A DNA stretch of 11,575 bases from Bdellovibrionota bacterium (GCA_044347345.1 JBIKUX010000044.1:1-11575), one strand, 5' to 3'; counted from the stretch's first letter, positions 1-11,575 are shown. A program made the numbers and translations. The notes: a model not told the origin generated them from the sequence alone.

Positions 1-279
1 ACTGTAATTACCACTTATGAAGATATTCACCAACTACTTCTCTGGAAAGTATACTGGGAAGGTCTTTCACTACGTAAAGTAGCAGCAGAATGGGAAACCG
101 ATGGGCTAAACGTTATTAGAGAGCATAAAAATTTATTAACTCATCTCTACCGAAGTCTAGCGGCAGGTCGCGGGAAAATAGAAAGACCCAAAGTTAGACC
201 AGGACTGCGTCCTGTAGCACTTTCAATGCGTAAAAAAGGTATCAAGAGTCCTTTTAATGAGCTTGATGTACCAAATTGA
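1..279 (+). CDS. 3' end of a sigma-70 family sigma factor (FliA/WhiG-like region 4), 5'-truncated by the window edge
   Basis: Frame +1 is open from base 1 to TGA at 277-279: TVITTYEDIHQLLLWKVYWEGLSLRKVAAEWETDGLNVIREHKNLLTHLYRSLAAGRGKIERPKVRPGLRPVALSMRKKGIKSPFNELDVPN*. YWEGLSLRKVAAEW...VIREH..LL..L resembles the sigma region-4 HTH pattern YYEELTLKEIGEVL...VSQLH..AI..L. Absent from the ORF track because it has no start codon in the window. Confidence 0.6.
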   Translation, partial: TVITTYEDIHQLLLWKVYWEGLSLRKVAAEWETDGLNVIREHKNLLTHLYRSLAAGRGKIERPKVRPGLRPVALSMRKKGIKSPFNELDVPN

Positions 280-328
280 TAACTACGATAATTGTTAGGA
301 ATACATCTGAATAAAAAGGCATGAGGCT

Positions 329-685
329 ATGGGTGACAAGAACAAGAATAAAGATAAATCAATTATTGGAGTAACTCGTACCTCACAAACAAAACATGTA
401 GAAAGAACTGGCACTGTCGAAGCCTTAGATTCAGTTAAAGCAATAAACTCAGTTGAAGCTACCAGCAAAACAAACCGTACTAACAAACTTGATGCCACTC
501 AGCAAAATACACAAAGTTTTTCCCAAGCTGAACGGTTAGAGCTTCTAAATCTTATTCAACAAGAAGCTGACAAAATGGAGAAAGATGGCTCGTTACCACA
601 ATCAACTAGCAAGATAGCACGAGAAGCCGTTTTAATGGCTGTTGATGCGGCAATTATTTTAAAAGATCCAGAAGAAACAAAATAG
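329..685 (+). CDS. Hypothetical 118-aa protein, possibly FlgM-like anti-sigma factor
   Basis: ATG preceded by GAGG. Low-complexity T/S/K-rich N-terminal half, then a helical C-terminus (SFSQAERLELL...DKMEKDGSLPQSTSKIAREAV) loosely resembling FlgM. Lies directly after the sigma-like gene. The ORF is fairly secure; the FlgM call is weak. Confidence 0.55.
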   Translation: MGDKNKNKDKSIIGVTRTSQTKHVERTGTVEALDSVKAINSVEATSKTNRTNKLDATQQNTQSFSQAERLELLNLIQQEADKMEKDGSLPQSTSKIAREAVLMAVDAAIILKDPEETK

Positions 686-987
686 CCAACTAAAATTAAA
701 GAATAAATAAAGGTACAAGGTCATTTACTTGCTAAAAGCAGTCTCATAAACCCCTAAACAGACGAAGTAGACGTAAGTATGCACGAGCACGCGCACTTGA
801 TACCTAGAGATAGGCGTTGAAGGGAATCTTTATACTATCGACTCTGCGAGCCCAAGAAACTAAATTAAACATTGATAGTCATCAAGTTTTCCAAGAAACA
901 ACTGTTCCATAATTTCCTCCTTCTCTTAAAGAATCGAGAAGAAGACAGCAAATTTTCCTTTCTTTCGTTTCATGAGCGGAAGGGGAA

Positions 988-1727
988 TTAGAGGCTTTTT
1001 CTGAAAAGGATGAGAATACACGGGAGATGAATAAAGACAGGGAAGTTCTAAAGCTTATACTCCCAACGAACTAAACATAGTCGTTATGTATCGTCGAAAT
1101 GAATGTCCATATTGGGTAGCTTTTTTTCTGTGAGGTGCAATCATCTCGACCCCCTTGCCTCTAACCGTTCATCAATCGAGTCATTTCATCAATCAAGTCA
1201 CTGTCATAAGCTCCGTCACCAATTAGCCATTCTCGAGTATCGGCAAAAAGGTTTTCATCGAAAGTTGCCTCGACAAAAGAGGGACTTCCTGCTGTGAAGC
1301 GCTCCTACGTGGATGGCGATTAGAATGGCATGAGTTTTGTCCCCTTACCACACTTGGTTTTCCCGAATCCGAGATCCCCTTTTTTGCTCCTGAAAAGGAG
1401 CAATCTATAAAGAATTCTTGCAAGGCAATCGCGTCTCACTCCTCAATCTCTCTTGTAAGCACCTCAAAAATCTCACCCAAGGTCCCATCTACTACCCATT
1501 GCTCTGAAATCTTTGGTGATATGTTCGGTACAATAAAAATTATTTCGGAAGACCTTTCCACCGAGTCCAGCTACATAGAATCCAATTAACTCTGTTCAAA
1601 ACTTTTCCATTGTTTTTTCACCGTTGTCCTAGAACATCTCACCTCAATTTTTTGCTCGAGAAGAACTAGAACTGGTTCAATCAGATCCCATTGCTATTTA
1701 GTGACTTCGTCTCTGTTGCTTATTCAT
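988..1727 (-). pseudogene. IS5-family transposase pseudogene
   Basis: Minus-strand fragments in shifting frames: EVTK*QWDLIEPVL; VLNRVNWIL..TRWKGLPK*; YHQRFQ; QWVVDGTLGEIF; EFFIDCSFSGAKKG (A6G slippery site 1379-1385); GKTKCGKGTKLM; IAIHV/SASQQEV; LIGDGAYDSD; GVEMIAPHRK; VRWEYKL*NFPVFIHLPCILILFRKSL*. Several stops and frameshifts; the W.IER segment appears deleted. Confidence 0.9.
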
Positions 1728-1778
1728 AAGCACATTGCATCTCTACGGCATCTCTTATAGATTTTCAGATACACTCTA
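989..1778 (-). mobile_element. Degenerate IS5-family insertion sequence (about 790 bp, probably IS427-like group)
   Basis: Transposase relic bounded by imperfect inverted ends: TAGAGgctttTTCTGAAAA from 989 on the + strand and TAGAGtgtaTCTGAAAA from 1778 on the - strand. Confidence 0.75.
1168..1201. repeat. 17-bp tandem duplication inside the IS relic
   Basis: TTCATCAATCGAGTCAT followed by TTCATCAATCAAGTCAC; it frameshifts the transposase after GDGAYDSD. Confidence 0.85.
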
Positions 1779-1876
1779 TTTATAAAACTACTTCTAGTTC
1801 AGTCATATATTGTGCACAATTCAATTAAATCATCTTGAAAAAAACTTTAGGTTTTTCTACAAGTCTAGATTGTATT

Positions 1877-2740
1877 TTATCCTAAAAGACTAAGAGCGAT
1901 TGCTGGCTGTTGGTTAGCTTGTGCAAGCACCGCAGCACCAGCCTGCTGTAGAATACCAAGACGAGTTAGCTCAGCGGAATCTGATGCAATATCAGCATCC
2001 CGAATACGGCTTTCTGCGGCAGCTTGGTTCTCTCGAGTTGATTCCAGATTGTTGATAGCTACTCTAAGTCGCGACTCAGCAGAACCTAACGAACCTCGAG
2101 TTGCCGCTAACGATGCTATCGCTCGGTTTACAGCATCAAGTGCGGTACGTGCAGATGATTGAGCGTCAAGAGATGTTGCACCACCTACAATTGAGAAGGA
2201 AAGAACAGAGCTTCCAGTAGCCGCAAGTCCTACTGATTGCAAACTACCTTGAACGTTATTTATTACAATTTGAGATGTCGATCGAGCATCAAATCCTACT
2301 TGCAGAGCAATTGAGCTAGTACCGGAAAGAAGCCTAACTCCGTTATACTCTGTTACGTTCGATATCCGCTCTATCTCAGAGCCTAACGCAGAAAACTCGG
2401 CCTGTAGAGCTGACCGCTGGTTAAGTGAAAATACTCCGTTTGCAGATTGTTCAGATAATTCAGCTAATCGAGTTAATACACCTCCAATTTCTGAAAGGGC
2501 ACCATCAGCGATTGCTATAAGCGATATACCATCATTAGCGTTTCTGATAGCTACGCCCGATATTCTTTGCTGAGCTCTAAGTGAGTCAGCAATTGCAAGA
2601 CCGGCAGCATCATCTGCAGCACGGTTAATACGCTGTCCTGAACTAAGCCGTTGAAAGACAGACTCTCGAGCAAGAGTGGATCTAGAAAGTTGCCTTTGCG
2701 CCTGAATAGACGCAATGTTTTGGCCTATCGAAATTCCCAT
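1877..2740 (-). CDS. fliC: Flagellin, short (287 aa, D0/D1 with a minimal variable region)
   Basis: N-terminal NIASIQAQRQL...RLSSGQRINRAADDAAGLAIA...RNANDGIS and C-terminal ESRIRDAD...ILQQAGAAVLAQANQQP..ALSLLG flagellin signatures; SD AAGGAGG at 2752-2746. Confidence 0.97.
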   Translation of the reverse strand: MGISIGQNIASIQAQRQLSRSTLARESVFQRLSSGQRINRAADDAAGLAIADSLRAQQRISGVAIRNANDGISLIAIADGALSEIGGVLTRLAELSEQSANGVFSLNQRSALQAEFSALGSEIERISNVTEYNGVRLLSGTSSIALQVGFDARSTSQIVINNVQGSLQSVGLAATGSSVLSFSIVGGATSLDAQSSARTALDAVNRAIASLAATRGSLGSAESRLRVAINNLESTRENQAAAESRIRDADIASDSAELTRLGILQQAGAAVLAQANQQPAIALSLLG

Positions 2741-2745
2741 TACTT

Positions 2746-2810
2746 CCTCCTTGAACTACTTTCACCCTAAATAGCGACTTCCTTTATTCGCTAAACGGAG
2801 CTTGGGTGAA
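2746..2810 (-). promoter_or_regulatory. Structured flagellin 5' leader with candidate CsrA/RsmA sites
   Basis: Outer stem TTCACCC/GGGTGAA (2761-2767 with 2804-2810); inner stem TAGCGA/TCGCTA enclosing loop AUAAAGGAAG; second GGA in the SD (CAAGGAGG). Confidence 0.6.
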
Positions 2811-2820
2811 TCAAAAGCAT

Positions 2821-2848
2821 ACAACGGAGACTTAATGACTTAATTTTA
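2821..2848 (-). promoter_or_regulatory. Possible sigma-28-like promoter of the flagellin
   Basis: TAAA-N16-TCCGTTGT versus consensus TAAA-N15-GCCGATAA; ends about 10 nt before the leader hairpin. Imperfect match. Confidence 0.3.
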
Positions 2849-3291
2849 AGACCAGAACTAACATTCAGTATATAAACAGTCTTTTATAACTACCCACTAC
2901 ATCTTATCTAAGGTCTAAAAAAGTAACTCATGTCTCATAATAAGTAGCACGGCAAATTTTTCCGGAAGCTTGAGATACTTTTTTCCTTTCCATTGAACAT
3001 ACAGATATTTTGCTATTTGTATGAATCTAGGTATAAACGAGTGCCAAATTTTCTCACGCGATAACTTCTGTTCAGATGGAAATATCTCTTGGTTGATGAA
3101 ATTATTGACTCAGAAATTCAGACTTGATTTAACTGTTAATCATCTAAGTTGTGTTAAATAACAAAATACTTTAAATAAATCAGACCAACCAACGTATCAG
3201 ATTTTATCCTTGAGATACCAAAAATCATTTATTAGTGGACTTCAGGTTACTTGACTAAATTGATGAGCTCTGGGTATTTTTGCGAAATAGA

Positions 3292-3741
3292 TTAATTGTC
3301 TTGACCGCGCAACGTAAATCTAGCTAGATGAGCCTCGTACAATCTCCTCACTTCAGGATCTTGCAAACTTCCGCTTTCTAGCTGTTCTCTAAGCTCACCT
3401 AGATAAGTTCCTGCACCATTTATGTCGTTTAAAGCTAAAAAACAGCTTACCAAGAAAAGTAATGCTCGAGCGGAACCAGGGTCAGCTCGGTAAGCTTCTC
3501 TCGCGTAATCAAGAGATTTTTCCGTTGCTCGCTGCATGAATGCACAGTAACTCAAGCCCAACCATCCTGGGGAAAAATGGGGAGCAACTGCCGTAATGCC
3601 CGCCATAATTGTCTCGCCCTTCTTTAAAAATCCAGCCTCTAAAAATAGACGACCAAGCTCATAAACGTTTGCTATCTCCTCATCAGTGTAGCCCTTGCGA
3701 AGAACCTCAGAAACCGTTCGTGGCCTACCTGTATCTGCCAT
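3292..3741 (-). CDS. TPR protein resembling class II T3SS chaperones (SycD/LcrH/CesD)
   Basis: 149 aa; GYTDEEIANVYELGRLFLEAG...GETIMAGITAVAP...WLGL matches the SycD/LcrH first-TPR pattern; further TPR-like helices follow (YAREAYRADP.SARALLFL). Confidence 0.7.
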   Translation of the reverse strand: MADTGRPRTVSEVLRKGYTDEEIANVYELGRLFLEAGFLKKGETIMAGITAVAPHFSPGWLGLSYCAFMQRATEKSLDYAREAYRADPGSARALLFLVSCFLALNDINGAGTYLGELREQLESGSLQDPEVRRLYEAHLARFTLRGQDN

Positions 3742-3746
3742 GCTCG

Positions 3747-4040
3747 TTAAACCTCTTCATCTATAGATTCGTCAGCTATTGCCTCTAGCAAATTATTTGG
3801 CTCAAATTGAAGCCATTCGAGAACCAGTCGCAACATACTTTCTTCTGCACTCCAACGCTTGATTGTCTCCTGCTCTACACCGGTATCAACTTCTCTACTA
3901 AGACGCAGAACGTGCTCATATCTGCCGTAAAGTGAGGAGGCAAGCGATTCTAACCTTCCAACTTTCCCCCTAATTGGAAGAAGAACTAGTAATGGCGAAC
4001 GAGCAAATGGCTCTGGTGGTAAGAAAGTTCGAAATTTCAT
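3747..4040 (-). CDS. Hypothetical 97-aa helical protein
   Basis: Co-oriented, ends 5 nt before the TPR gene start; amphipathic helices and acidic tail; no recognisable family and no NPTH motif. Confidence 0.7.
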   Translation of the reverse strand: MKFRTFLPPEPFARSPLLVLLPIRGKVGRLESLASSLYGRYEHVLRLSREVDTGVEQETIKRWSAEESMLRLVLEWLQFEPNNLLEAIADESIDEEV

Positions 4041-4089
4041 AGTCTCAATACCTTTGTCACTTGAAAAAATAATTTTAAGGAATCAGTAA

Positions 4090-4611
4090 TTACTTAAAAT
4101 TTGACCTTGTAAAAAACAAAAAATAAAGATGACATATTGTCCATATAGTCCCCAATATTAAAATATATTGTTCCAAAACAACTCTAATCGAATTCAGATA
4201 AAGTTCTTCCGCTCTGAACAAAGATAGTGCTAGAGGGACTCCCCGCAAAACAAGAGAAATTAACGCAACTGTTAATATTAAAACTCGACATAACGATAAA
4301 AGATTCGCCCTCACTTTTATTTTAGAAGTTGTTTTTTTTGATGAACGCATAGCTAGAACAATGAATCCAATTAAAAGGAAGATCGACACGCAGCTAATCA
4401 CAAGAAAAGAGGGAAATAAAATATTAGTATCAAAAAAAGTAACTAAATTGCTTTTGTTTAAGTTATGGATCTTTGTAATCCATGACCGCATTATTATCAC
4501 GGCAAGCACTGAAGAGACTCCACTTGAAACCCCTAAAATGGCTTTTTTTTCTAGAGACAACCTTATCTTTTCAATACTTTGGTAGTCTCGGTCATTATCT
4601 CGCTTAGCCAT
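4090..4611 (-). CDS. Membrane protein, probable highly divergent SctU/FlhB transmembrane domain without the cytoplasmic domain
   Basis: SD GAGGT before ATG; fourth gene of the R-S-T-U block; charged N-terminus, about 4 hydrophobic segments with a basic central loop; ends HLYFLFFTRSNFK where the SctU/FlhB TM domain ends. Family call rests mainly on position and topology. Confidence 0.55.
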   Translation of the reverse strand: MAKRDNDRDYQSIEKIRLSLEKKAILGVSSGVSSVLAVIIMRSWITKIHNLNKSNLVTFFDTNILFPSFLVISCVSIFLLIGFIVLAMRSSKKTTSKIKVRANLLSLCRVLILTVALISLVLRGVPLALSLFRAEELYLNSIRVVLEQYILILGTIWTICHLYFLFFTRSNFK

Positions 4612-4638
4612 TTACCTCACTTAGTAATGGTTAACAAT

Positions 4639-5145
4639 TTAATTACGAAATATTAATTTAGTAAATTTATCTGTAATATAGTATCCAGTGATACAAATTA
4701 AGACTATCGTCAAAGTAGCTTTTAATACAGAGATCACTGCTGTAGTAACAGCTTCTCTCCTAGCTCCGGTTATCCCTTGAGTTCCTATCATAGTTGAAGC
4801 GACGATATAACAAACAATACCGTTGATAATACCAATTCCAAGAACCGGCAAACAAATAACTGACCCAATCGAGACTATAATTTCCACAGGGTTTTTAAAT
4901 GAGCCTAAGGGCAAAATTAGACTCGGAACTAAACTACAGATGGTTAAGCATAAAACCATCAATTTTACCGAAGAAATTTCAAAAATAGCTATTCCTTTAG
5001 TAAACAGTAATTGAGTGGCTGTAATGACTCCATTAGTACAAATAAGAATTATAGCGATCTGTTGAAGCATTAATAAAAGAGAGCTATGCATTATCCAAGC
5101 TATAAAAGCTACAAAAACTGTAATCAAGGTAGCTGTTAAGCCCAT
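4639..5145 (-). CDS. Membrane protein, probable shortened and divergent SctT/FliR
   Basis: 168 aa, almost wholly hydrophobic; directly after sctS; IIVSIGSVICLPVLGIGIINGIV recalls the FliR/SctT 'LxLAxPxxxxxLLxxxxLG' helix. Family call is mainly positional. Confidence 0.55.
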   Translation of the reverse strand: MGLTATLITVFVAFIAWIMHSSLLLMLQQIAIILICTNGVITATQLLFTKGIAIFEISSVKLMVLCLTICSLVPSLILPLGSFKNPVEIIVSIGSVICLPVLGIGIINGIVCYIVASTMIGTQGITGARREAVTTAVISVLKATLTIVLICITGYYITDKFTKLIFRN

Positions 5146-5149
5146 TACA

Positions 5150-5401
5150 TTACATCTGCCCCCACACTCGTTCAGTAAAACGCAAAAGTCGCGGAATAAT
5201 TAGAGGATATATAATTAAACTGGCACCAATTACGCCCATACAACGAACAACTATACCAAAGCCTGAATCAGTAACTCTCGTAAATCGCTCAATAACAGCC
5301 ACAATTACTCCCACTACTAACATGACAATAAATACAGGAACTAGTGCCATCACAAGTAATTGCAACGCTTCGTAGATAACTATTCTAAGGGATGCTTCCA
5401 C
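5150..5401 (-). CDS. sctS: Export gate subunit SctS/FliQ, divergent
   Basis: 83-aa helical hairpin: EALQLLVMALVP...VVGVIVAVI...T...D......R...P......L.RF; size and position typical. Confidence 0.85.
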   Translation of the reverse strand: MEASLRIVIYEALQLLVMALVPVFIVMLVVGVIVAVIERFTRVTDSGFGIVVRCMGVIGASLIIYPLIIPRLLRFTERVWGQM

Positions 5402-5421
5402 AACCTAGAGCCTTTTCCTAG

Positions 5422-5991
5422 TTATGGGAAAATATAACCACGCAACAATCTTGTTGTAAGTAATGTCCATCCATCTACCGTCAAGAAAAGAAGCAACTTT
5501 AAAGGAAATGTTACTGATCCGTTGGCGAGCATAGGAACTGCTCCACACGCACAAAGAACGGCTACAAGAATATCAACAAATACAAACGGTACTAGGATAT
5601 AGACTCCTATAACCAAAGACTCGCGTAACTCAGTCAAAAGAAAAGCTGGCAATAACGCATAGTCGCTACTAATCGCCGTTTTTTGATTTTGTCTCGCGGC
5701 TACAACCTTAGACAAGAGCTGACTATCGGTATTTTCCTGCAAAAACGGGCGAAGAGTAGCCACAACTTGCCCTCCATTAAGAGTACCCTGATCAGCCAAA
5801 AGATGCTCAACTAACGGCAAAGAAACATACATAGAAAACACCAATGCGAGTAAAATTACTACAGCACTAGTACCAGCTCCAGACAAACCAAGACCAGCCC
5901 GCAAAATGGAGAAAGTTGTTGCGAGCTTAATAAAGGGTGTGCAACAGAGCAATAGTAGAAAAACAGGCAGAGATAACAGCATTACTTCCAT
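5422..5991 (-). CDS. sctR: Export gate subunit SctR/FliP, divergent
   Basis: TPFIKL...SILRAGLG, LRPFL, LLPAFLLTELR....IG....VPF...D, FPLKLLLFLTVDGW. No N-terminal signal peptide, as in injectisome SctR rather than typical FliP. Confidence 0.93.
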   Translation of the reverse strand: MEVMLLSLPVFLLLLCCTPFIKLATTFSILRAGLGLSGAGTSAVVILLALVFSMYVSLPLVEHLLADQGTLNGGQVVATLRPFLQENTDSQLLSKVVAARQNQKTAISSDYALLPAFLLTELRESLVIGVYILVPFVFVDILVAVLCACGAVPMLANGSVTFPLKLLLFLTVDGWTLLTTRLLRGYIFP

Positions 5992-5999
5992 ATATATTT

Positions 6000-6029
6000 T
6001 TTATATGTAGCGGCGCCCCTAATGGTCAA
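6000..6029 (-). promoter_or_regulatory. Candidate sigma-70 promoter immediately upstream of sctR
   Basis: TTGACC (6029-6024)-N18-TATAAA (6005-6000), 8 nt before the ATG at 5991; no SD sequence. Confidence 0.4.
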
Positions 6030-6105
6030 GCCGTTAACTTAGTACAATCCACTAAATTAACCACATCGTAAATAAAATATTATTTAATTCACAAGAAAAC
6101 AAAAC

Positions 6106-7128
6106 TTAAAGAACTGTAACTGCAAATCGTCCCTGATACATCTGAAGTACAGCATCTGCTACTTTCTCACCATTAATTACCAATTGAACGTTTTCTGGAA
6201 CTGGAAAATCTGCGACGTAAATAGCTCCAGATTGAGCTAATTCCACTATTATAGTGTCATCAACCACAAATGATGGAAATTCAATGTGTACCCTAGTGGT
6301 ACCAGAAGGTATTTCACGTTGTATCACCGGTGATGGCATAGTTTCATAAGCGCAACGCCCCCCACACTCCCCCATTCTGACCATTAACCAAGGTTTATTA
6401 CCCAATTTAAGAGTCATCAATTCACTAATCGGTACCTCTAAATCTATAGATGTGCCCGAGCGAGTATAATCAATGAGGGCTGATGGTGATACCGCAAGCT
6501 GAGCGATTTCGACCCTAACACTGTATTGACCCCTATTTACTTGAGATGCTGAGCGGATTTGACGACGCCACAATCCATCAATAATTCCTACGAGTCTCTC
6601 TCCTATAGACATGTACAAAACTGCTTGCCTACCATTTAAGAGTATTTCAATCTTCACTACTCCTTCAATAGAGCGCGATTCAAAATCATTTAACCCAATA
6701 TATTTTAATTCAGCTAATTCAGGGCCACTCCATGAAGAAACCAATGAGCCAAGCAAACGACGAACCAAGTAATCAATTAATACTTCTCTACCCCCGGGTT
6801 GGCTGACTTTAAGAAGAGCATTTCCCATTACTTGAACTGAATCTTCTAATATAGTGACACTTATTGGAGCTTCGTCTACTTCTCCCCAAAAAACATAACC
6901 CTTACCTTCAACCTTTTCCAGTGTTGTTGTTATTCGAACGACCTGTACTTCAATACCCATTGACTGAAATAGAGGTGACCATTCTGCACTTAAACCAGGA
7001 AACCAGCGCTCTGGACGACTCTGCAAAAAGCCCTTCGACCAACGTACAGATTGAACATTAAACGAGGTCAGATAAGAGCTAGGGTTCCATGTCTCTAGCT
7101 CAGTGGTCTCATCAATGTCGTCACTCAC
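6106..7128 (-). CDS. sctQ: SctQ-like (FliM/FliN-type) sorting platform/C-ring protein with two degenerate SPOA domains
   Basis: 340 aa; SPOA-like YSVRVEIAQLAV...GTSIDL...LKLGNK and TRVHIEF...GAIY...VQLVINGEKVADAVLQMYQGRFAVTV; located before sctR; GTG start overlaps the upstream stop (GTGA). Confidence 0.8.
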   Translation of the reverse strand: MSDDIDETTELETWNPSSYLTSFNVQSVRWSKGFLQSRPERWFPGLSAEWSPLFQSMGIEVQVVRITTTLEKVEGKGYVFWGEVDEAPISVTILEDSVQVMGNALLKVSQPGGREVLIDYLVRRLLGSLVSSWSGPELAELKYIGLNDFESRSIEGVVKIEILLNGRQAVLYMSIGERLVGIIDGLWRRQIRSASQVNRGQYSVRVEIAQLAVSPSALIDYTRSGTSIDLEVPISELMTLKLGNKPWLMVRMGECGGRCAYETMPSPVIQREIPSGTTRVHIEFPSFVVDDTIIVELAQSGAIYVADFPVPENVQLVINGEKVADAVLQMYQGRFAVTVL

Positions 7129-7478
7129 TTGGTTCTTGCCTCCTCTTGAAGCTGTGCTAACTCTTTATTAATATCTTTCAGCCGACTCTGAGCACGACTT
7201 AAATCTTCTCTAGCTATCAAGAGTCTATTTTTACTAGCTTCAAAATCATTCCGTAATTTACGAACTAACGACCCAGCGGCTCCAACTTGAGCCGCGTTTC
7301 CCCTTATTACACTCTTAATTAGGGGCACTTCAGAGATCTTATCTTGAATGATCGCAAGCTCAGCTTCAATTAATGATACCCTCTCACTCCTTCTTTCTAT
7401 CTCTCGAATAACTTCCTCTTTCAAACGTATTAAAACTTCTTGTTCTTCATCAATATTACCATCATCATCAACGGTCAT
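7125..7478 (-). CDS. Coiled-coil protein, SctO/FliJ-like by position and shape
   Basis: Start revised to ATG 7478 (or GTG 7481) after GGGGGAG, overlapping the upstream gene end; 117 aa forming two long heptad helices around a GNAAQV turn. Confidence 0.6.
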   Translation of the reverse strand: MTVDDDGNIDEEQEVLIRLKEEVIREIERRSERVSLIEAELAIIQDKISEVPLIKSVIRGNAAQVGAAGSLVRKLRNDFEASKNRLLIAREDLSRAQSRLKDINKELAQLQEEARTK

Positions 7479-7722
7479 CACTCCCCCGTGGCCGTAACCG
7501 TAACTGTAAGGCAACTCTAAGCACCGTTGCCGCAAAAGCTGTGCGAAGTTCTGGGTCAAGCTTCCCAAGAATCTCAGCAATACTTGCTAATTCATTACCA
7601 GCTTCCACATCTGTTACCAAATATCTTGCTGCTTCACGACCATCTAATAGAACTGCCGTAGCAATTAATACTTGTTTATCTGGTGAAAGCGAAAGCATAT
7701 TTGCGATAACTTCAGCTCCCAT
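7468..7722 (-). CDS. Small helical protein in the SctK slot (SctK/FliG-fragment-like, unproven)
   Basis: Start revised to ATG 7722, 1 nt after the sctJ stop; 84 aa, amphipathic helices; tightly packed between its neighbours. Confidence 0.6.
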   Translation of the reverse strand: MGAEVIANMLSLSPDKQVLIATAVLLDGREAARYLVTDVEAGNELASIAEILGKLDPELRTAFAATVLRVALQLRLRPRGSDDR

Positions 7723-7723
7723 T

Positions 7724-8599
7724 TCAACGCTCCGGAAATTGAGACTCTCGCTGTCCACTAATCATAGTTATCGATTTGGAATCTAAAAAATCACTTCCAC
7801 TCACAGGAGTACGTGCACGCAAACGTAGTCCCCGAAACCAATAACCCAAAACTGACCCTGCACCTGCTATTGCGAATGTAATGCAAAGAAGAAATAACGC
7901 GAGTCGCGCAACATCTTCTCGCGCAACTCTAGCAATCCCTAAAAAAAGCTTGAGCTGAGTGGGTTGCAACTCCTTCTTTATACTATCTGGCAACATCTCC
8001 CCAACATGCAAAGATATTCCCTCAGGAGATAACTCTGGAAGATTAGTACGGATAAGGTTAAACACAGTAGAGCTACTAATAATAGTGCCACGGTCTACTT
8101 TAAGCACTATTGCCACTCCTGACGAAACTTGCGAATTTCCATCCTGTCCAATATTTTTCAAATTACTTCGTACCATTACTTTTGCCTCGCGTACACCGGG
8201 GATTTTAAGCAAAAGTTCCTCTATTTCGAGCCCTCGAGCGTAATCAAGCCTACGTTGCTCCACTTCCTGACTCGGAGGTAAAAAACTCCCCGCTCCTAAC
8301 AGCTCCTCGATGGTTATTACATTATTTTGAGGTAAATTTTGTTCATGTAAACGAAGTATCGCATTAGAATAATCCGGCTCAGCAACAAAGACTGAAAACT
8401 TAGCACCGCCACCGCCAGACTTACTTACGGATGCTGGAATCTGTACCTTTTGTAACTCTGCTACCACTTGAATAGCTTGACTTTGAGTTAGTCCAGAGAG
8501 AACTTCTTTATTATTGCAACCAGCTACAAACACAACCGCGCAACAAATGGCAGAGATACCAGTTAATTGGTGAGCCAGCTTATTTACCTTAACCTTCAT
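7724..8599 (-). CDS. sctJ: SctJ (YscJ/PrgK family) inner-membrane ring lipoprotein
   Basis: Start revised to ATG 8599 (ATGA overlap with the upstream stop). Lipobox FVAGC; VLSGLTQSQA..V.A.L; NLP....IEELL...SFLPPSQEVE..RL.YA...EIE..L..IPGV.EAKV ring-building motifs; C-terminal TM LALFLLCITFAIAGAGSVLGYWF. Confidence 0.9.
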   Translation of the reverse strand: MKVKVNKLAHQLTGISAICCAVVFVAGCNNKEVLSGLTQSQAIQVVAELQKVQIPASVSKSGGGGAKFSVFVAEPDYSNAILRLHEQNLPQNNVITIEELLGAGSFLPPSQEVEQRRLDYARGLEIEELLLKIPGVREAKVMVRSNLKNIGQDGNSQVSSGVAIVLKVDRGTIISSSTVFNLIRTNLPELSPEGISLHVGEMLPDSIKKELQPTQLKLFLGIARVAREDVARLALFLLCITFAIAGAGSVLGYWFRGLRLRARTPVSGSDFLDSKSITMISGQRESQFPER

Positions 8600-10467
8600 T
8601 CCGCTCTGAGAGGGTCTGTAACGGAGATAATATCGTAAGGAATTAGACATACAAGGTAACTAATTTTACCAAATCTTACCCAATCACCGTGATTAAGCCG
8701 AATCACATCTTCTTCTCGCTTCCAATCATGACTAGCATTTCCTCGGAGAATAAATAAGCCATTATTACTCATTAAATCTTGCACTTTTACTCCTTCAAGG
8801 GAAGCGTTCATCATAGCATGCGGAGCTGATATTGACTCATCCTCAATTACTAAGTCACCCTCTTTAATTATCCGACTCGAAATAAAAAATTTACCTTCTC
8901 GTATTTCGATACTGTGCCCCTGACGCCTATCATAAGACACGAGCCATCCGATTAAATGTTTATCAGTATCTTCCTCTTCTTTCAAAGATTGATGAACCCG
9001 TGTTGGACTTTCAGCTATTATATCAGAACTATCGATCTGACTTTCTAAATTATTATTATCTGCCGCCGTATCATATAAATCGCTCCTGAAATCAGAAGAA
9101 TTATTTTCGTTAGTTGGCTCAAAGGAATGTTGTGGATCTAAAAAATTTTGACCATCATCAATTAATTCGGACTCTATGATTACAGGGTCGGTAAACTCCT
9201 TCTCTTGTTGAACAATCTCTGATATCTGTGAATGTTCATTTGAATAATTAACTAAACCATCTTCAAATTGAGCATGTAATCCATTCGACTCAGGCTCAGG
9301 CTCAGGCTCAGGTTCATAATTAGTAGTAAGCTGGCTACCATCACTTGTCGTGGTAATAATTGATGTTGTTACCGGTTCCTCATCGAACATTGCATCATTG
9401 ATAAGTGATTTAACTTCTGTGGAATTATCTAAAATATCTTCTGCTACACTTGATTGATTTGACCTTCCTGCACTTGAGCTAAACGGATCCGCAAGAGGCT
9501 CTTCACTAAACGGAAATTGCTTTGGAATAACTTCATCATCTTCACTAGTTTGAATAGTAGCCTCCTTGTTTATTTTCTGTGTCTCTGGTCGCTGTACTGG
9601 AAAAGCAGTATTACCACCTAATCGGAATGCCTTTGACCTATCTCGCTCCGGTGCAACTCGAAAAGAGCCGGGATTAGGTTCATCACTTGAATCCGAATCT
9701 AAATCGATCTCTTTCTTAATTTCAAAATCATTAATCGAATCATCATTATTATAATCTGATCCTGCTTCTTTATGGGTCTGTAGTTGACTAGTATAGTCTT
9801 CAATAGAAGGTTCATCCCCCAATAAATAATCTCCAAGTGGATTTGCACCACTATCATAACCATCAAGATCCATTGCTGTATTGGCTTTTAAATTTTTTTG
9901 ACTATCTGAGCTTTCGTCAGCCAAATATATTGGTTTGGTAGATTCGTTACCATCTATACCATTCTCATTACTCAACTCTTTCTCATAACCAAACTCAGCC
10001 AAATCCTCACTTGCATTTCTATCGCCATTTGCGTCGTCAGTATGATTAACTCCAGTACTTCGGAGACGATTAACAGTATCGGATAAAACAGGATCTTGTT
10101 CCTTGGCTGTACGTACCCTAATCCGCCCCTCACTACTATCACTTACGTTTCGAACTATCCTTTCACTTCTTTCTAAGGTAGGCTTTCCGCTATCTACATT
10201 TGTGCTTAAAGCTTGCCTACTCTGCGAGGCTTGAGATGTATTTTTTTGAGACTCTGTATCTGACCCGTTAAGATTGCTCAATAAACTCTTGTTACCCTCT
10301 AAATCTTTCTCTTTACTGAAAGAAGAACCATTAATGGAGCGAGGTTCCGTCGATATATCAGAGGCTAATACATATCCACACATTCTGCATCTTGTTGACA
10401 TAGCCGGTACGAGACTACGACACGATGGACAGCGTATAAAAGTAAGGTCAGCGGCATCTGAAGCCAT
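8596..10467 (-). CDS. Zinc-ribbon, long acidic disordered linker, C-terminal FHA domain protein (623 aa)
   Basis: N-terminal CPSC-x10-CRMC; D/E/S/N-rich centre; C-terminal LIGWLV...FFISSR...DESISAPHA...VQDLMSNNGLFI...LNHGDWVRFG FHA fold. Confidence 0.85.
   Translation of the reverse strand: MASDAADLTFIRCPSCRSLVPAMSTRCRMCGYVLASDISTEPRSINGSSFSKEKDLEGNKSLLSNLNGSDTESQKNTSQASQSRQALSTNVDSGKPTLERSERIVRNVSDSSEGRIRVRTAKEQDPVLSDTVNRLRSTGVNHTDDANGDRNASEDLAEFGYEKELSNENGIDGNESTKPIYLADESSDSQKNLKANTAMDLDGYDSGANPLGDYLLGDEPSIEDYTSQLQTHKEAGSDYNNDDSINDFEIKKEIDLDSDSSDEPNPGSFRVAPERDRSKAFRLGGNTAFPVQRPETQKINKEATIQTSEDDEVIPKQFPFSEEPLADPFSSSAGRSNQSSVAEDILDNSTEVKSLINDAMFDEEPVTTSIITTTSDGSQLTTNYEPEPEPEPESNGLHAQFEDGLVNYSNEHSQISEIVQQEKEFTDPVIIESELIDDGQNFLDPQHSFEPTNENNSSDFRSDLYDTAADNNNLESQIDSSDIIAESPTRVHQSLKEEEDTDKHLIGWLVSYDRRQGHSIEIREGKFFISSRIIKEGDLVIEDESISAPHAMMNASLEGVKVQDLMSNNGLFILRGNASHDWKREEDVIRLNHGDWVRFGKISYLVCLIPYDIISVTDPLRAE
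9289..9312. repeat. Hexamer microsatellite (CTCAGG)x4 encoding an EP repeat
   Basis: Four perfect copies, in frame, giving EPEPEPEPE in the linker of the FHA protein. Confidence 0.9.
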
Positions 10468-10736
10468 GTGAAATTTTCCGATCTATAACGCTATATCAAC
10501 CTTTTTCGACGAAATAAAAACTCATATCTATTTTTTAAAACTTTTAACTACAATCAAATTTTAAATTCATTCCAATATTTAATTCGTTACTCTTCAATCG
10601 GTTAAACTGCAAATAATCTAAATCGTACCTATGTTAACTTCTGATGATATTCTTAGTATCTCGCATCACCCTTTAAAGATTATTAACAAAGATTTAGCTG
10701 CACCAGTACCGCTACGACCGTAAAAAAATTTTAAAC

Positions 10737-11575
10737 CTATGAAAAAATTCCTCGCAGTAATCCAACTATGAGTACTAACAAAAAACAAACACTTACCCCC
10801 ACCAACACGAGCATCGGAATGCCAGCTTCTCGAACAGCGTTTAACACAGATAAAGGTAGACGAACAATCCACCACTTTTTATTTAATTTACCTCTATCTA
10901 AAGAAACTCGATCATCAAATCCCTCGGCCTTTAGAAATTGATTGTTATCTAATATTTCTTTCTCTGTAGCTTTAGACTTCACAAATGAAAAGGGAGATCC
11001 ATTGGTGGATAAAAAAAGTTTCTCATCTTGTTCTGAAAAACAGATTCCAATAGTGATACCATCCCCTAAGCTCAAAACTTTTGGTTGATTTTGAGCAACT
11101 ACTAGTTCAGCGCCCTTTGGTAGCAAACCAAATTCATGAAACGTACCGTTAGTTGAACGATCTGTGATAAACAGACGGCCATCTGCACCTACCACAATTA
11201 CACAGTGAAGACGCGAAATGTAAGGTGCTCCAACCCACAAATCGCTTGCCGGATCGCGTCCAATGCGAATCTCAGTACCAGGTTGCAGACGTAAACGCGC
11301 CGGCCGAACTACCTCAGAAACCGAAATAAGAGCTGGAAATGTTACTTGTAAATTAGGGGTTGAATGGACAGCTTTTAGAACCGCACCACCAAGTAGCGAA
11401 GATCCTCCAGAGGGTGGTATGTCAGACTCATTTTTGTCTATGTGATTAACTGATAATTTACCGTTCCTATCACGGTCTAGCCATCCTTCTTCATCTTGTA
11501 ACTTGGACGGATCTGTTCCATTCCGTCCAATAATCACAGTTGTTCTTGCAAGAATAGCTGGTTGACCTACCGACA
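10737..11575 (-). CDS. FHA-domain protein with C-terminal membrane anchor, probably 5'-truncated by the window edge
   Basis: Canonical FHA IGR...ISRLHC...DRSTNGTF; C-terminal TM IPMLVLVGVSVCFLLVLIVGLL. The frame stays open upstream of GTG 11537 (SVGQPAILARTT) to the window end. Confidence 0.85.
   Translation of the reverse strand, partial: SVGQPAILARTTVIIGRNGTDPSKLQDEEGWLDRDRNGKLSVNHIDKNESDIPPSGGSSLLGGAVLKAVHSTPNLQVTFPALISVSEVVRPARLRLQPGTEIRIGRDPASDLWVGAPYISRLHCVIVVGADGRLFITDRSTNGTFHEFGLLPKGAELVVAQNQPKVLSLGDGITIGICFSEQDEKLFLSTNGSPFSFVKSKATEKEILDNNQFLKAEGFDDRVSLDRGKLNKKWWIVRLPLSVLNAVREAGIPMLVLVGVSVCFLLVLIVGLLRGIFS

Follow-up and report, generated by a model that had tools for sequence, protein, structure and literature searches.

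The T3SS* of Myxococcus xanthus (mxan_2434-2464) is, by the accounts given in PMC10433427, PMC12075869 and PMC8460266, a non-flagellar core without secretin, needle or translocon, which has LcrH-like TPR chaperones and, in Kil, a Tad-like partner rich in FHA-domain proteins. The locus described here, from a member of the Bdellovibrionota, is like it in these features, and both lineages are of the deltaproteobacterial type and regarded as predators, predation being assumed in the present one from the phylum label alone, as it has no cultured member. As described in PMC10433427, the T3SS* cluster also encodes SctD, SctI, SctN, SctL and a full SctU, whereas our cluster has no SctN or SctL (0/40 loci), no periplasmic part of SctD and, apparently, an SctU without the C-terminal domain. 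What is more, the T3SS genes here appear to have been ancestrally contiguous with a Tad operon and lie at separate loci in Myxococcus, the two being likened by gene content. Kil and T3SS* co-occur, by the account of a 2025 review, only in Cystobacterineae (PMC12428579).

Abby and Rocha (2012) describe the 'Myxo' NF-T3SS loci, short and long, as early-branching, conserved and without secretin and SctF (PMC3459982). They come, by the same account, in two variants per genome, and the genome studied here likewise holds two non-flagellar sets; they are also described as retaining the ATPase and the inner rod (PMC3459982), unlike our cluster, the comparison being one of descriptions. The name Bdellovibrio does not occur in that paper (PMC3459982). 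With the classical injectisomes (Ysc, Inv-Spa, Cds), our cluster shares a lipoprotein SctJ, an SctQ with two SPOA domains, a signal-less SctR, SctS, an SctO-like protein, an SctV-type gate and a TPR chaperone, but it lacks SctC, the SctD ring, SctF, SctI, SctN, SctL, SctP, SctW and translocators. It is also related to the flagellar export apparatus, with the FliP, FliQ, FliJ and FliM/FliN families as homologues and a predicted SctQ structure that can be aligned to entire FliM chains in C-ring structures. That said, FliF, FliG, rod and hook genes are absent from the cluster, the genome carries a separate, complete flagellar set, and relatives that lack flagellin retain the cluster.

Here, we analyse a window, by which we mean the whole 11,575-nucleotide stretch of GCA_044347345.1 (JBIKUX010000044.1:1-11575). 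It is our belief that it probably contains the core of a needle-less, secretin-less, non-flagellar (Sct) T3SS-like apparatus coupled to a Tad pilus, in the manner of Kil and T3SS* in Myxococcus.

Results

The cluster consists of a row of genes, all on the minus strand, in the order FHA1, FHA2, SctJ, K-slot, SctO/FliJ-like, SctQ, SctR, SctS, T-slot, U-slot, X and TPR. None of the twelve frames is interrupted, and ATGA or GTGA overlaps couple the translation of several; read directly from the sequence, the ATGA joins the stop of FHA2 to the Met18 start of SctJ, and the GTGA joins the stop of the O-slot gene to the start of SctQ. The genes are strongly diverged, with orthologues at most 42% identical and nearly all NCBIfam scores below the curated cut-offs. 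The first-pass annotation, which had proposed an unusual, intact, T3SS-derived set of non-flagellar type with coupled frames, was borne out, and its gene row stands at every position except for the identities given to the T and U slots. The set is paralogous both to the flagellar export genes of the genome and to a second non-flagellar set.

The inner-membrane ring lipoprotein SctJ (7724..8650, likely start Met18 at 8599) matches PF01514 at 51 bits (cut-off 24.4) and TIGR02544 at 83 bits, which does not reach the cut-off of 162, versus 17 bits for FliF. A VAGC lipobox can be read in its sequence, its C-terminal transmembrane segment is followed by some 40 cytoplasmic residues, and its gene is present at 33/40 loci. 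The K-slot (7468..7758, likely start Met13 at 7722), found at 29/40 loci, encodes a small protein, some 76-84 residues long and folded into four helices. In an alignment of 27 sequences, it shows a mean column identity of 38% with L37, D39, G40 and R81 invariant; its AlphaFold model has a pLDDT of 91, and the fold has no match in the PDB with E <0.8. The SctO/FliJ-like coiled coil (7125..7580, likely start Met35 at 7478) has no Pfam match itself, and in a genome-wide search an HMM built from 25 of its relatives finds it at 48.1 bits (E 5e-13); L056, a relative of 161 aa, reaches 27.7 bits for FliJ and 22.6 bits for YscO-like, both just below the cut-offs. Finally, the SctQ-like cytoplasmic-ring protein (6106..7128) carries two SPOA domains after a middle domain that is FliM/CheC-like. 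It matches PF01052 at 26.8 bits, and a profile of 38 sequences matches YscQ-C with E 6e-7. Its AlphaFold model (pLDDT 90.8) retrieves FliM(SPOA)::FliN in Foldseek with E 2.7e-8, as well as whole FliM, the FliM middle domain and FliY, and therefore fits two SPOA domains at residues ~201-263 and ~278-339.

Upstream of this core lie two FHA genes. FHA1 (10737..11575) is cut at its N-terminus by the contig end, with the C-terminal 278 residues remaining of a tail-anchored two-FHA protein of about 446 residues; in the window it matches PF00498 at 46 bits and Yop-YscD_cpl at 20 bits, while a full-length relative, in which FHA is matched over two stretches, reaches 56.9 bits for Yop-YscD_cpl (cut-off 33.2). 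The family occurs at 34/40 loci, and a C-terminal transmembrane segment with a tail of at most 11 residues is seen in 34 of 35 members. Judging from these matches, FHA1 resembles the cytoplasmic domain of SctD, and it is without a periplasmic one. FHA2 (8596..10467) has a zinc ribbon at its N-terminus (UPF0547, residues 13-33) and an FHA domain at its C-terminus (FHA and Yop-YscD_cpl, residues 516-602), with a long linker between the two that is acidic and rich in Ser. Both of its ends are kept in 38/40 loci, with a linker of variable length (279-711 aa).

In the export gate, SctR (5422..5991) is without a signal-peptide extension and matches PF00813 at 102 bits; it is 189 aa long versus 280 aa for the flagellar FliP of the genome, and scores higher against SpaP (74.7 bits) than against FliP (59.7 bits) in the PDB. 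SctS (5150..5401) matches PF01313 at 33.5 bits (cut-off 25), with 30 bits for the fliQ model and 26 bits for the SctS model, both below the NCBIfam cut-offs. The next two frames are less tractable. Namely, the polytopic T-slot protein (4639..5145), with some 5-6 hydrophobic segments, and the U-slot protein (4090..4611), with a charged N-terminus and about four hydrophobic segments, had been called sctT-like and sctU-like. Their position and number of hydrophobic segments fit these names, but neither has a Pfam or NCBIfam match, HMMs of 27 relatives each miss both in any frame, and hhalign gives probabilities of at most 0.5% (0.4% for the T-slot). The same U HMM does recover the other SctU/FlhB paralogues of the genome, on contigs C4 and C63, at 75 and 68 bits, and Bac_export_2 matches in the genome are confined to these two contigs. 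Among 5.8 billion proteins, the sole relative of the T-slot protein is an intact JGI protein with 71% identity, and the U-slot search returned only itself. In the relatives, Bac_export_1 is matched by 7/22 T-slot proteins and Bac_export_2 by 19/22 U-slot proteins, the latter over the membrane part only. These patterns suggest that the SctU of the cluster lineage lacks the autocleavage (C-terminal) domain, and that in the present genome both genes have diverged beyond recognition.

Downstream, X (3747..4040) is small and conserved, and carries a P..LLP motif and, at its C-terminus, a helix; P16, L20, P22, E66, M69 and W76 are invariant among 14 aligned sequences, and it has no Pfam or NCBIfam family match. 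The TPR protein (3292..3741), whose gene is present at 23/40 loci, resembles class II T3SS chaperones (TPR_16 and TPR_19 at 31 bits; LcrH_SycD at 23 bits and E 5e-5, not reaching the cut-off of 104.8; SctY at E 0.059). A model of the two in complex scores 0.84, versus 0.01 for the best of 3 controls, a mark reached by 58/80 solved complexes and 2/110 mismatched pairs; model runs share at least 80% of contacts, with a partner pLDDT of 71. The TPR protein is thus predicted to have X as its client, where the high score may in part or whole mirror a likeness to solved TPR-chaperone complexes.

No secretin or needle gene was found in or near the cluster, and none of the 40 loci has a gene for an ATPase or an SctL-like protein within 10 kb. 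No substrate, outer-membrane route or dedicated ATPase was identified for the cluster. The genome has a single, orphan SctN-like ATPase on contig C3, which is present at E 1e-80 in only 28/40 relatives and may belong to the second non-flagellar set instead.

A gate subunit of the SctV type is encoded on a contig other than that of the cluster, C45, where its gene closes a Tad operon that is headed by an FHA gene and a Ser/Thr kinase gene and continues with TadZ-like, Flp, CpaF, TadB and TadC genes. It scores 501 bits for hrcV versus 418 for FlhA, and its best PDB match is 7alw, over the full length and at 350 bits, with FlhA chains matching only over the membrane part. Together with the scores of SctJ and SctR, these two results support the non-flagellar type in four ways. 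SctV lies directly upstream of FHA1 in 12/40 loci, all 12 being among the 18 loci from other orders, and is preceded by TadC in 5 loci; in other orders of the same class, there is a continuous row from Tad through SctV and the kinase to the cluster. Within the same order, G001 and G033 still have SctV on the contig of the cluster, some 7 kb upstream, and the linkage is gone in the present genome and in much of its order. Comparison of the loci thus indicates that the ancestral arrangement is the cluster joined to Tad and SctV.

The cluster is conserved across the whole Bdellovibrio-like lineage: the SctQ-like gene is present in 114/124 genomes of the phylum (70/73 of the high-quality ones) and in 40/41 relatives, and gene order is kept across the 40 loci fetched for synteny comparison. 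Contigs from three lake metatranscriptome runs, all of one study, match the window without error over parts of FHA1, FHA2, SctJ, the junction of O and Q, SctR/S and, from 1 to ~1000, the sigma pair, and a fourth RNA run from a second study covers FHA2; these contigs are strandless and may stem from contaminating DNA.

Between the TPR gene and this sigma pair sits a flagellin gene (1877..2740, minus strand; Flagellin_N 125 bits, Flagellin_C 79 bits), which we regard as a neighbour outside the system. It is one of 5-6 paralogues, being 75% identical to a copy on contig C32 and 57-61% to two on C7; it shares TTAAA-N17-CCGTT upstream of the start with the C32 copy and hence probably has its own promoter. 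The ordinary flagellar genes whose presence had been put forward as a check on the locus are found elsewhere in the genome (FlhA, FlhB, FliP, FliR, FliF, FliI, FliM, FliN, FlgK, FlgL, rod and hook proteins, MotB). Flagellin is near the cluster in 1/40 loci, and three relatives of 92-97% completeness (G018, G020 and G032), which lack both a Flagellin_N match and a flagellar-type FlhA, retain the cluster. In other words, the cluster is independent of flagellin, which stands beside it by chance.

Discussion

In known systems, SctT and SctU are both required for a working gate. With both slots unrecognisable, the gate may consequently be broken or rebuilt here, and one could argue that the cluster is decaying in this genus, i.e. 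that a real ancestral system has lost SctT and SctU and ceased export. The U HMM does find the other paralogues, the T-slot and U-slot proteins are the shortest of their family (168 and 173 aa versus ~190-300), G+C dips to 33% over 4001-5000 versus 36-43% in the adjacent 1-kb windows, and the cluster is detached from Tad-SctV. However, the twelve frames are open and several are coupled, the T-slot has its intact relative at 71% identity, both slots retain a suitable number of hydrophobic segments, RNA-library contigs match other cluster genes, and FHA1, FHA2, SctJ, SctQ, SctR, X and TPR are still ~25-50% identical to their relatives. For these reasons, we consider decay unlikely.

Another argument one can make is that the cluster is a stand-alone export or checkpoint device of the inner membrane, independent of Tad. 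Namely, FlgM export releases a sigma factor in flagella, and export of an anti-sigma-like protein, such as X or a conserved ORF of 118 residues, could similarly free a FliA-like sigma. The end of a divergent sigma-70-family (FliA/WhiG-like) gene (1..279, plus strand), a C-terminal fragment of 92 residues cut by the contig end, is followed by this ORF (329..685, plus strand), and in relatives the two genes run towards the 3' end of the cluster, with the sigma gene beside the TPR gene in 15/40 loci and the ORF in 11/40. The gene earlier labelled 'sigma-28-like' is thus no more than a fragment here, and all 5/5 full-length relatives give weak sigma70-ECF and FliA_WhiG matches. The predicted chaperoning of the small protein X, and the distance that often separates the cluster from Tad within the order, would also agree with such a device. 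That said, the 118-residue ORF has no FlgM or other family match (0/5 copies), and the ancestral arrangement unites the cluster with Tad and SctV, so that we find a Tad-independent role rather doubtful.

It is less probable still that the cluster feeds ring and gate subunits, as spare parts, to the second non-flagellar set or to the flagellum. The genome does hold three paralogous sets (flagellar, this cluster and the second non-flagellar set, A), of which set A is itself split over contigs C4 and C7, and there is only one orphan SctN-like ATPase. However, set A owns SctJ, SctR, SctS, SctT, SctU, SctV and TPR genes, the flagellar set is complete, and genomes of the order generally have three FHIPEP paralogues, in keeping with three distinct machines. 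Finally, the proposal of a flagellum/injectisome hybrid that exports or polymerises the adjacent flagellin is largely refuted and very improbable: the flagellin gene is co-oriented and follows the TPR gene after 551 nt, a FliA-like sigma gene lies in the vicinity, and one distant genome (L060, G065) has a FlgE-like gene directly upstream of K-O-Q-R-S, but the idea fails in view of the complete flagellum, the single linkage among 40 loci, the probable own promoter of one flagellin among several and the flagellin-free relatives that keep the cluster.

Returning to the reading that we favour, a secretin-less apparatus coupled to a Tad pilus, we infer that its parts, namely the SctJ ring, the SctQ platform, an SctO stalk-like protein, the SctR/SctS gate, the FHA pair and the TPR protein with its client X, would assemble in the inner membrane. 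The two FHA proteins would occupy the place of the SctD cytoplasmic domain, and phospho-signalling between kinase and FHA domains would, together with the Tad pilus, recruit the apparatus or switch it on. With the SctU switch domain absent, a single class of small chaperoned proteins would be exported, at the expense of the proton-motive force or by means of the orphan SctN-like ATPase on contig C3. In this way, the apparatus would serve the pilus machine in cell-contact functions and may, by comparison with Kil and T3SS* in prey killing by Myxococcus, take part in predation.

Results

The cluster is a non-flagellar type III core cut down to an inner-membrane ring, a cytoplasmic platform, a stalk-like protein and a gate. 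All of its genes lie on the minus strand of the window, which makes up the whole of one contig (C55) in a genome of 2.53 Mb, 68 contigs and 95.8% completeness; the sequencing runs in which this DNA occurs are lake and freshwater metagenomes. The first-pass annotation had listed the FHA genes, SctJ, SctQ, SctR, SctS, a SycD-like gene and a flagellin, and family scans bear most of this list out, while the ATGA and GTGA couplings it claimed can be read in the sequence of the cluster as overlaps. In particular, SctJ (7724-8650) matches PF01514 at 51 bits, exceeding the cut-off of 24.4, and TIGR02544 at 83 bits, below the cut-off of 162, versus 17 bits for FliF; it carries a lipobox and a C-terminal transmembrane segment, as befits the lipoprotein of an inner-membrane ring. 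The SctQ-like protein (6106-7128), identified by family scan and structural model, scores 26.8 bits with PF01052, and its profile matches YscQ-C at E 6e-7. Among the matches of its model (pLDDT 90.8) are FliM over its whole length, the middle domain of FliM and FliM(SPOA)::FliN fusions (E 2.7e-8); it thus has a CheC-like domain and two SPOA domains, C-terminal as in SctQ. The gate subunits SctR (5422-5991; PF00813, 102 bits) and SctS (5150-5401; PF01313, 33.5 bits) both exceed their Pfam cut-offs and score below those of the equivalent NCBIfam equivalogs. The junction between SctQ and SctR is a gap of 114 nt in the window. Genes standing at this junction in five related loci (L048, L049, L051, L075 and L063) were considered as cargo and set aside, as they are by family unrelated insertions (a DUF3313 lipoprotein, HTTM, FG-GAP, a methyltransferase, SRAP and a CN-hydrolase).

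Two small proteins complete the central part of the row. The O-slot coiled-coil ORF (7125-7580) is recognized genome-wide at 48 bits and E 5e-13 by an HMM of relatives from the same slot, one member of this family falling just below the FliJ and YscO-like cut-offs. The K-slot ORF (7468-7758) is a real gene, being conserved in 29 of 40 related loci with four invariant residues in an alignment of 27 sequences, and its model is confident (pLDDT 91). The alignment had given rise to the idea of a FliG N-domain remnant, which was dropped after Foldseek returned no PDB match at E <0.8 and no FliG. Neither the K-slot protein nor X, the protein encoded beside the TPR gene, matches a needle or rod protein, and look-ups of both in the ESM Atlas gave nothing usable. 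What is more, no match to the secretin SctC, the needle SctF or the rod SctI was found among the proteins of the window; the genome has two secretins, on contigs C26 and C51.

Upstream of SctJ lie two FHA genes found by family scan. FHA1 (10737-11575, open at the contig end) is tail-anchored in 34 of 35 copies, no more than 11 residues following the transmembrane segment, and consequently there is no SctD-like periplasmic ring. FHA2 (8596-10467) encodes a zinc ribbon, a long acidic linker and a C-terminal FHA domain. It is 623 aa long in the window, as opposed to 279-556 aa in nearly all relatives (one has 711 aa), the surplus lying in an acidic low-complexity linker rich in Ser and Asn, with a PEPEPEPE run. 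FHA phospho-signalling proteins occupy the place where the cytoplasmic domain of SctD would act.

The T-slot ORF (4639-5145) and the U-slot ORF (4090-4611), initially annotated as sctT-like and sctU-like, are tied to SctT and SctU solely by position and hydrophobic pattern, and the claimed similarity goes no further than this. Namely, HMMs, a six-frame HMM search, tblastn and hhalign were all empty for both slots, and a word-based search of 5.8 billion proteins returned only the protein itself for U, and itself plus one 71% identical relative for T. The protein database lists both the T-slot and the U-slot protein on a contig of 38 kb. For the T-slot ORF, the comparison with SctT by Pfam, NCBIfam, an HMM of 27 relatives and hhalign gave no match, the HMM being a weak one, since the FliR and SctT of the genome escape it as well. 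The U-slot ORF is not matched by the U HMM, although the same HMM detects the SctU/FlhB paralogues on contigs C4 and C63. Among relatives, 7 of 22 T-slot proteins match Bac_export_1 and 19 of 22 U-slot proteins match Bac_export_2; the latter are only 190-275 aa long and end at the linker after the membrane part, their consensus retaining FlhB-like N-terminal and linker motifs. The autocleaving switch domain that forms the C-terminal part of SctU was not found for the cluster, and the genome has no third C-terminal domain of this kind. The stretch holding the two slots (4001-5000) has a G+C content of 33%, against 36-43% in the adjoining 1-kb windows, and the gene callers of other assemblies retain only a 103-aa protein at the U-slot ORF.

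The SctQ-like protein occurs in 40 of 41 relatives, the sole miss being a genome of 62% completeness, and in 114 of 124 genomes of the phylum, all from one class (70 of the 73 of high quality). Orthologues share no more than 42% identity. Across the 40 fetched loci the recurrent order is FHA1, FHA2, SctJ, K, O, SctQ, SctR, SctS, T, U, X and TPR; tblastn at E 1e-5 recovered FHA1 in 34, FHA2 in 38, SctJ in 33, K in 29, SctQ in 39, SctR in 30, X in 15 and TPR in 23 of them, many of the loci ending at contig breaks. The NCBI titles of the related loci (n=38) present the source genomes as Bdellovibrionota, Bdellovibrionales, Deltaproteobacteria, Pseudomonadota and one "Dadabacteria", all of them uncultured. 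Two departures from the common order deserve mention. In one distant genome (L060; G065:C37, ~7660-13700), a FlgE-like hook gene and a porin gene immediately precede the run K, O, SctQ, SctR, SctS, T and U; none of FHA1, FHA2 and SctJ was found there, and the SctQ matches that of the window and not flagellar FliM. In two genomes of 1.2-1.8 Mb (L066 and L067, from G042 and G041), only FHA1, FHA2, an ORF of 76-78 aa and a weak SctQ-like gene were seen, with neither SctJ nor SctR in the fetched stretch, and these may represent a further reduced form of the cluster.

The genome holds three FHIPEP, three FliP-family and three YscJ/FliF-family genes, and in the order three FHIPEP paralogues are usual. 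An ordinary flagellar system forms the first set, with fliM, fliN, fliP, fliR, flhB and flhA on C63, fliF and fliI on C54, rod genes, flgK and flgL on C3, a hook-sized protein on C22 and motB on C68. The second is non-flagellar and split over C4:17631-25900 (L027) and C7:35400-41100 (L028). The former carries a YscI-like gene, a 295-aa ORF upstream of sctR for which no Pfam match was obtained, sctR, sctS, sctT and an sctU whose 252-aa membrane part and 88-aa C-terminal part are separated by the gene for a 1249-aa GAF/PAS histidine kinase. The latter carries a sigma-70-family gene, sctJ, two unassigned ORFs, a 632-aa sctV, a TPR gene and a 104-aa ORF, and FHIPEP proteins of this type (~620-650 aa) are found in most relatives. 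The third set consists of the window and an SctV-type gate on C45, outside the window, which scores 501 bits with hrcV versus 418 with FlhA and has 7alw as its closest solved relative. The best 120 hits of the SctV search all come from uncultured MAGs or unnamed sources. As to an ATPase, none of the 40 loci has a type III ATPase (SctN), or an SctL, closer than 10 kb to the cluster (0/40). An orphan SctN-like ATPase is encoded at C3:49648-50967 (L127:7646-8968, minus strand; SctN 381 bits, FliI 372, both below cut-offs), back to back with flgK and flgL and followed by a 226-aa ORF that has no Pfam match; at E 1e-80, it has one match, of 41-55% identity, in 28 of 40 relatives.

The gate on C45 is the last gene of an operon encoding FHA, a Ser/Thr kinase, TadZ-like, Flp pilin, CpaF, TadB and TadC proteins. 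This Tad-SctV operon and the core lie on separate contigs in the window's genome, and neither Tad nor SctV genes occur within 10 kb in the first ten loci from the same order. In 12 of the 40 related loci, the cluster directly adjoins an SctV of the C45 type. In particular, 12 of 18 loci from other orders have this SctV together with a kinase-like protein of ~830 residues directly upstream of FHA1, with TadC before the SctV-kinase pair in five loci. The core and a Tad operon ending in an SctV gate are ancestrally contiguous, and from this linkage the core would be coupled to Tad.

The flagellin (1877-2740, family scan) was proposed in the first-pass annotation as a filament or substrate of the cluster. 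This idea fails, as a flagellin is found near the cluster in only 1 of 40 loci, and three genomes (G018, G020 and G032; see loci L045 and L071) keep the cluster with no Flagellin_N match and only two FHIPEP types, both non-flagellar. The flagellin link is thus incidental. The presence of a complete ordinary flagellar system in the genome, which had been named as a check, likewise counts against a hybrid, and the cluster itself is not flagellar, having no FliF/FliG rotor, rod or hook genes of its own, with a separate flagellar set elsewhere. The flagellin is one of five or six small flagellins in the genome and is 75% identical to a paralogue on C32; ahead of both starts lie a TTAAA-N17-CCGTT motif and a similar ribosome-binding site, as judged from just these two sequences. 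In the window the flagellin stands between the TPR gene and a pair formed by a sigma gene and a 118-aa ORF, a pair that elsewhere adjoins the TPR gene directly. Metatranscriptome contigs that cover the flagellin (1851-2926) show 29-33 differences and no longer follow the window left of 1851; a near-identical flagellin thus exists in another context, in another strain or copy. The enterobacterial sigma-28 consensus has 0 matches in the window, and a generic scan of 1-3900 gave 5 promoter-like and 1 terminator-like sites, neither number exceeding what shuffled sequence yields on average (7.5 and 2.8).

A hint of expression comes from three lake metatranscriptome runs of one study, whose contigs identical to the window include parts of FHA1, FHA2, SctJ, the O/Q junction, SctR/S and the sigma pair, and FHA2 is also covered by a run from a second study; being contigs, these data are not informative as to strand, level or DNA carry-over. 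Positions 1159-1544, 3089-3474 and 4247-5018 are uncovered in all four runs, the contigs alone saying nothing on expression there, and 3475-4246 left a trace in one run only.

At the end of the row, X and the TPR gene (3292-3741; weak LcrH/SycD match) are separated by a 5-nt gap and are co-conserved. Modelled as a complex, the two proteins score 0.84, a mark that 58 of 80 solved complexes attain, as do 2 of 110 mismatched pairs, while the best of three controls scores 0.01; the runs share at least 80% of contacts and the pLDDT of the partner is 71. The predicted contacts of X comprise residues 15-30, including the invariant P16, L20 and P22, and residues 61-76. Class II chaperones of type III systems bind a short Pro/Leu motif of translocators. 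The model supports binding of X by the TPR protein, and the cluster would accordingly hold one putative chaperone-client pair. That said, likeness to solved chaperone complexes alone could explain the pass.

Discussion

To our knowledge, needle-less type III systems are known and have been studied in Myxococcus only. There, the needle-less system and a Tad-like pilus cooperate in prey killing by a mechanism that is unknown. The Myxococcus system, T3SS*, is the closest described counterpart of our cluster. The Kil Tad-like pilus recruits it, and prey lysis requires it (PMC12075869, PMC10433427); FHA proteins are over-represented in Kil (PMC8460266). As far as the description in PMC10433427 goes, both systems have a core with no secretin, needle or translocon, and, from gene linkage alone, the partner here would also be a Tad-like machine rich in FHA proteins. 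Conserved secretin-less loci, in a short and a long form, were reported from Cystobacterineae by Abby and Rocha (PMC3459982); according to a 2025 review (PMC12428579), this myxobacterial suborder is the only one in which Kil and T3SS* co-occur. A 2026 preprint on the Tad machine of Bdellovibrio bacteriovorus mentions neither T3SS nor FlhA, and our literature search, outside which lie the supplementary Bdellovibrio gene lists of PMC8460266 and PMC12075869, found no description of the cluster.

The cluster has no needle, secretin, ATPase or SctU switch domain of its own. One possible, if rather doubtful, explanation is that Tad and the core are halves of one composite envelope machine predating the split of the orders, in which a kinase/FHA-controlled SctV/SctRSTU gate would load small chaperoned proteins (X) onto the Tad pilus or pass them through it and its secretin, the Kil/T3SS* of Myxococcus being a second, unlinked version. 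If so, the type III part would get by without its own needle, secretin and ATPase. A role in predation is suggested by the phylum label only, the lineage being uncultured.

What the finding adds is a second, deeply diverged lineage holding a type III core even more reduced than that of Myxococcus, with many members in which this core stands in one gene row with a Tad operon, an SctV gate and a kinase. Such a row lends independent genomic support to the two machines working as a unit. The finding also provides a minimal parts list, namely SctJ, K, O, Q, R, S, T, the N-terminal part of U, and V, together with two FHA proteins and a chaperone-client pair, and it bears on the evolution of non-flagellar type III systems from flagella.
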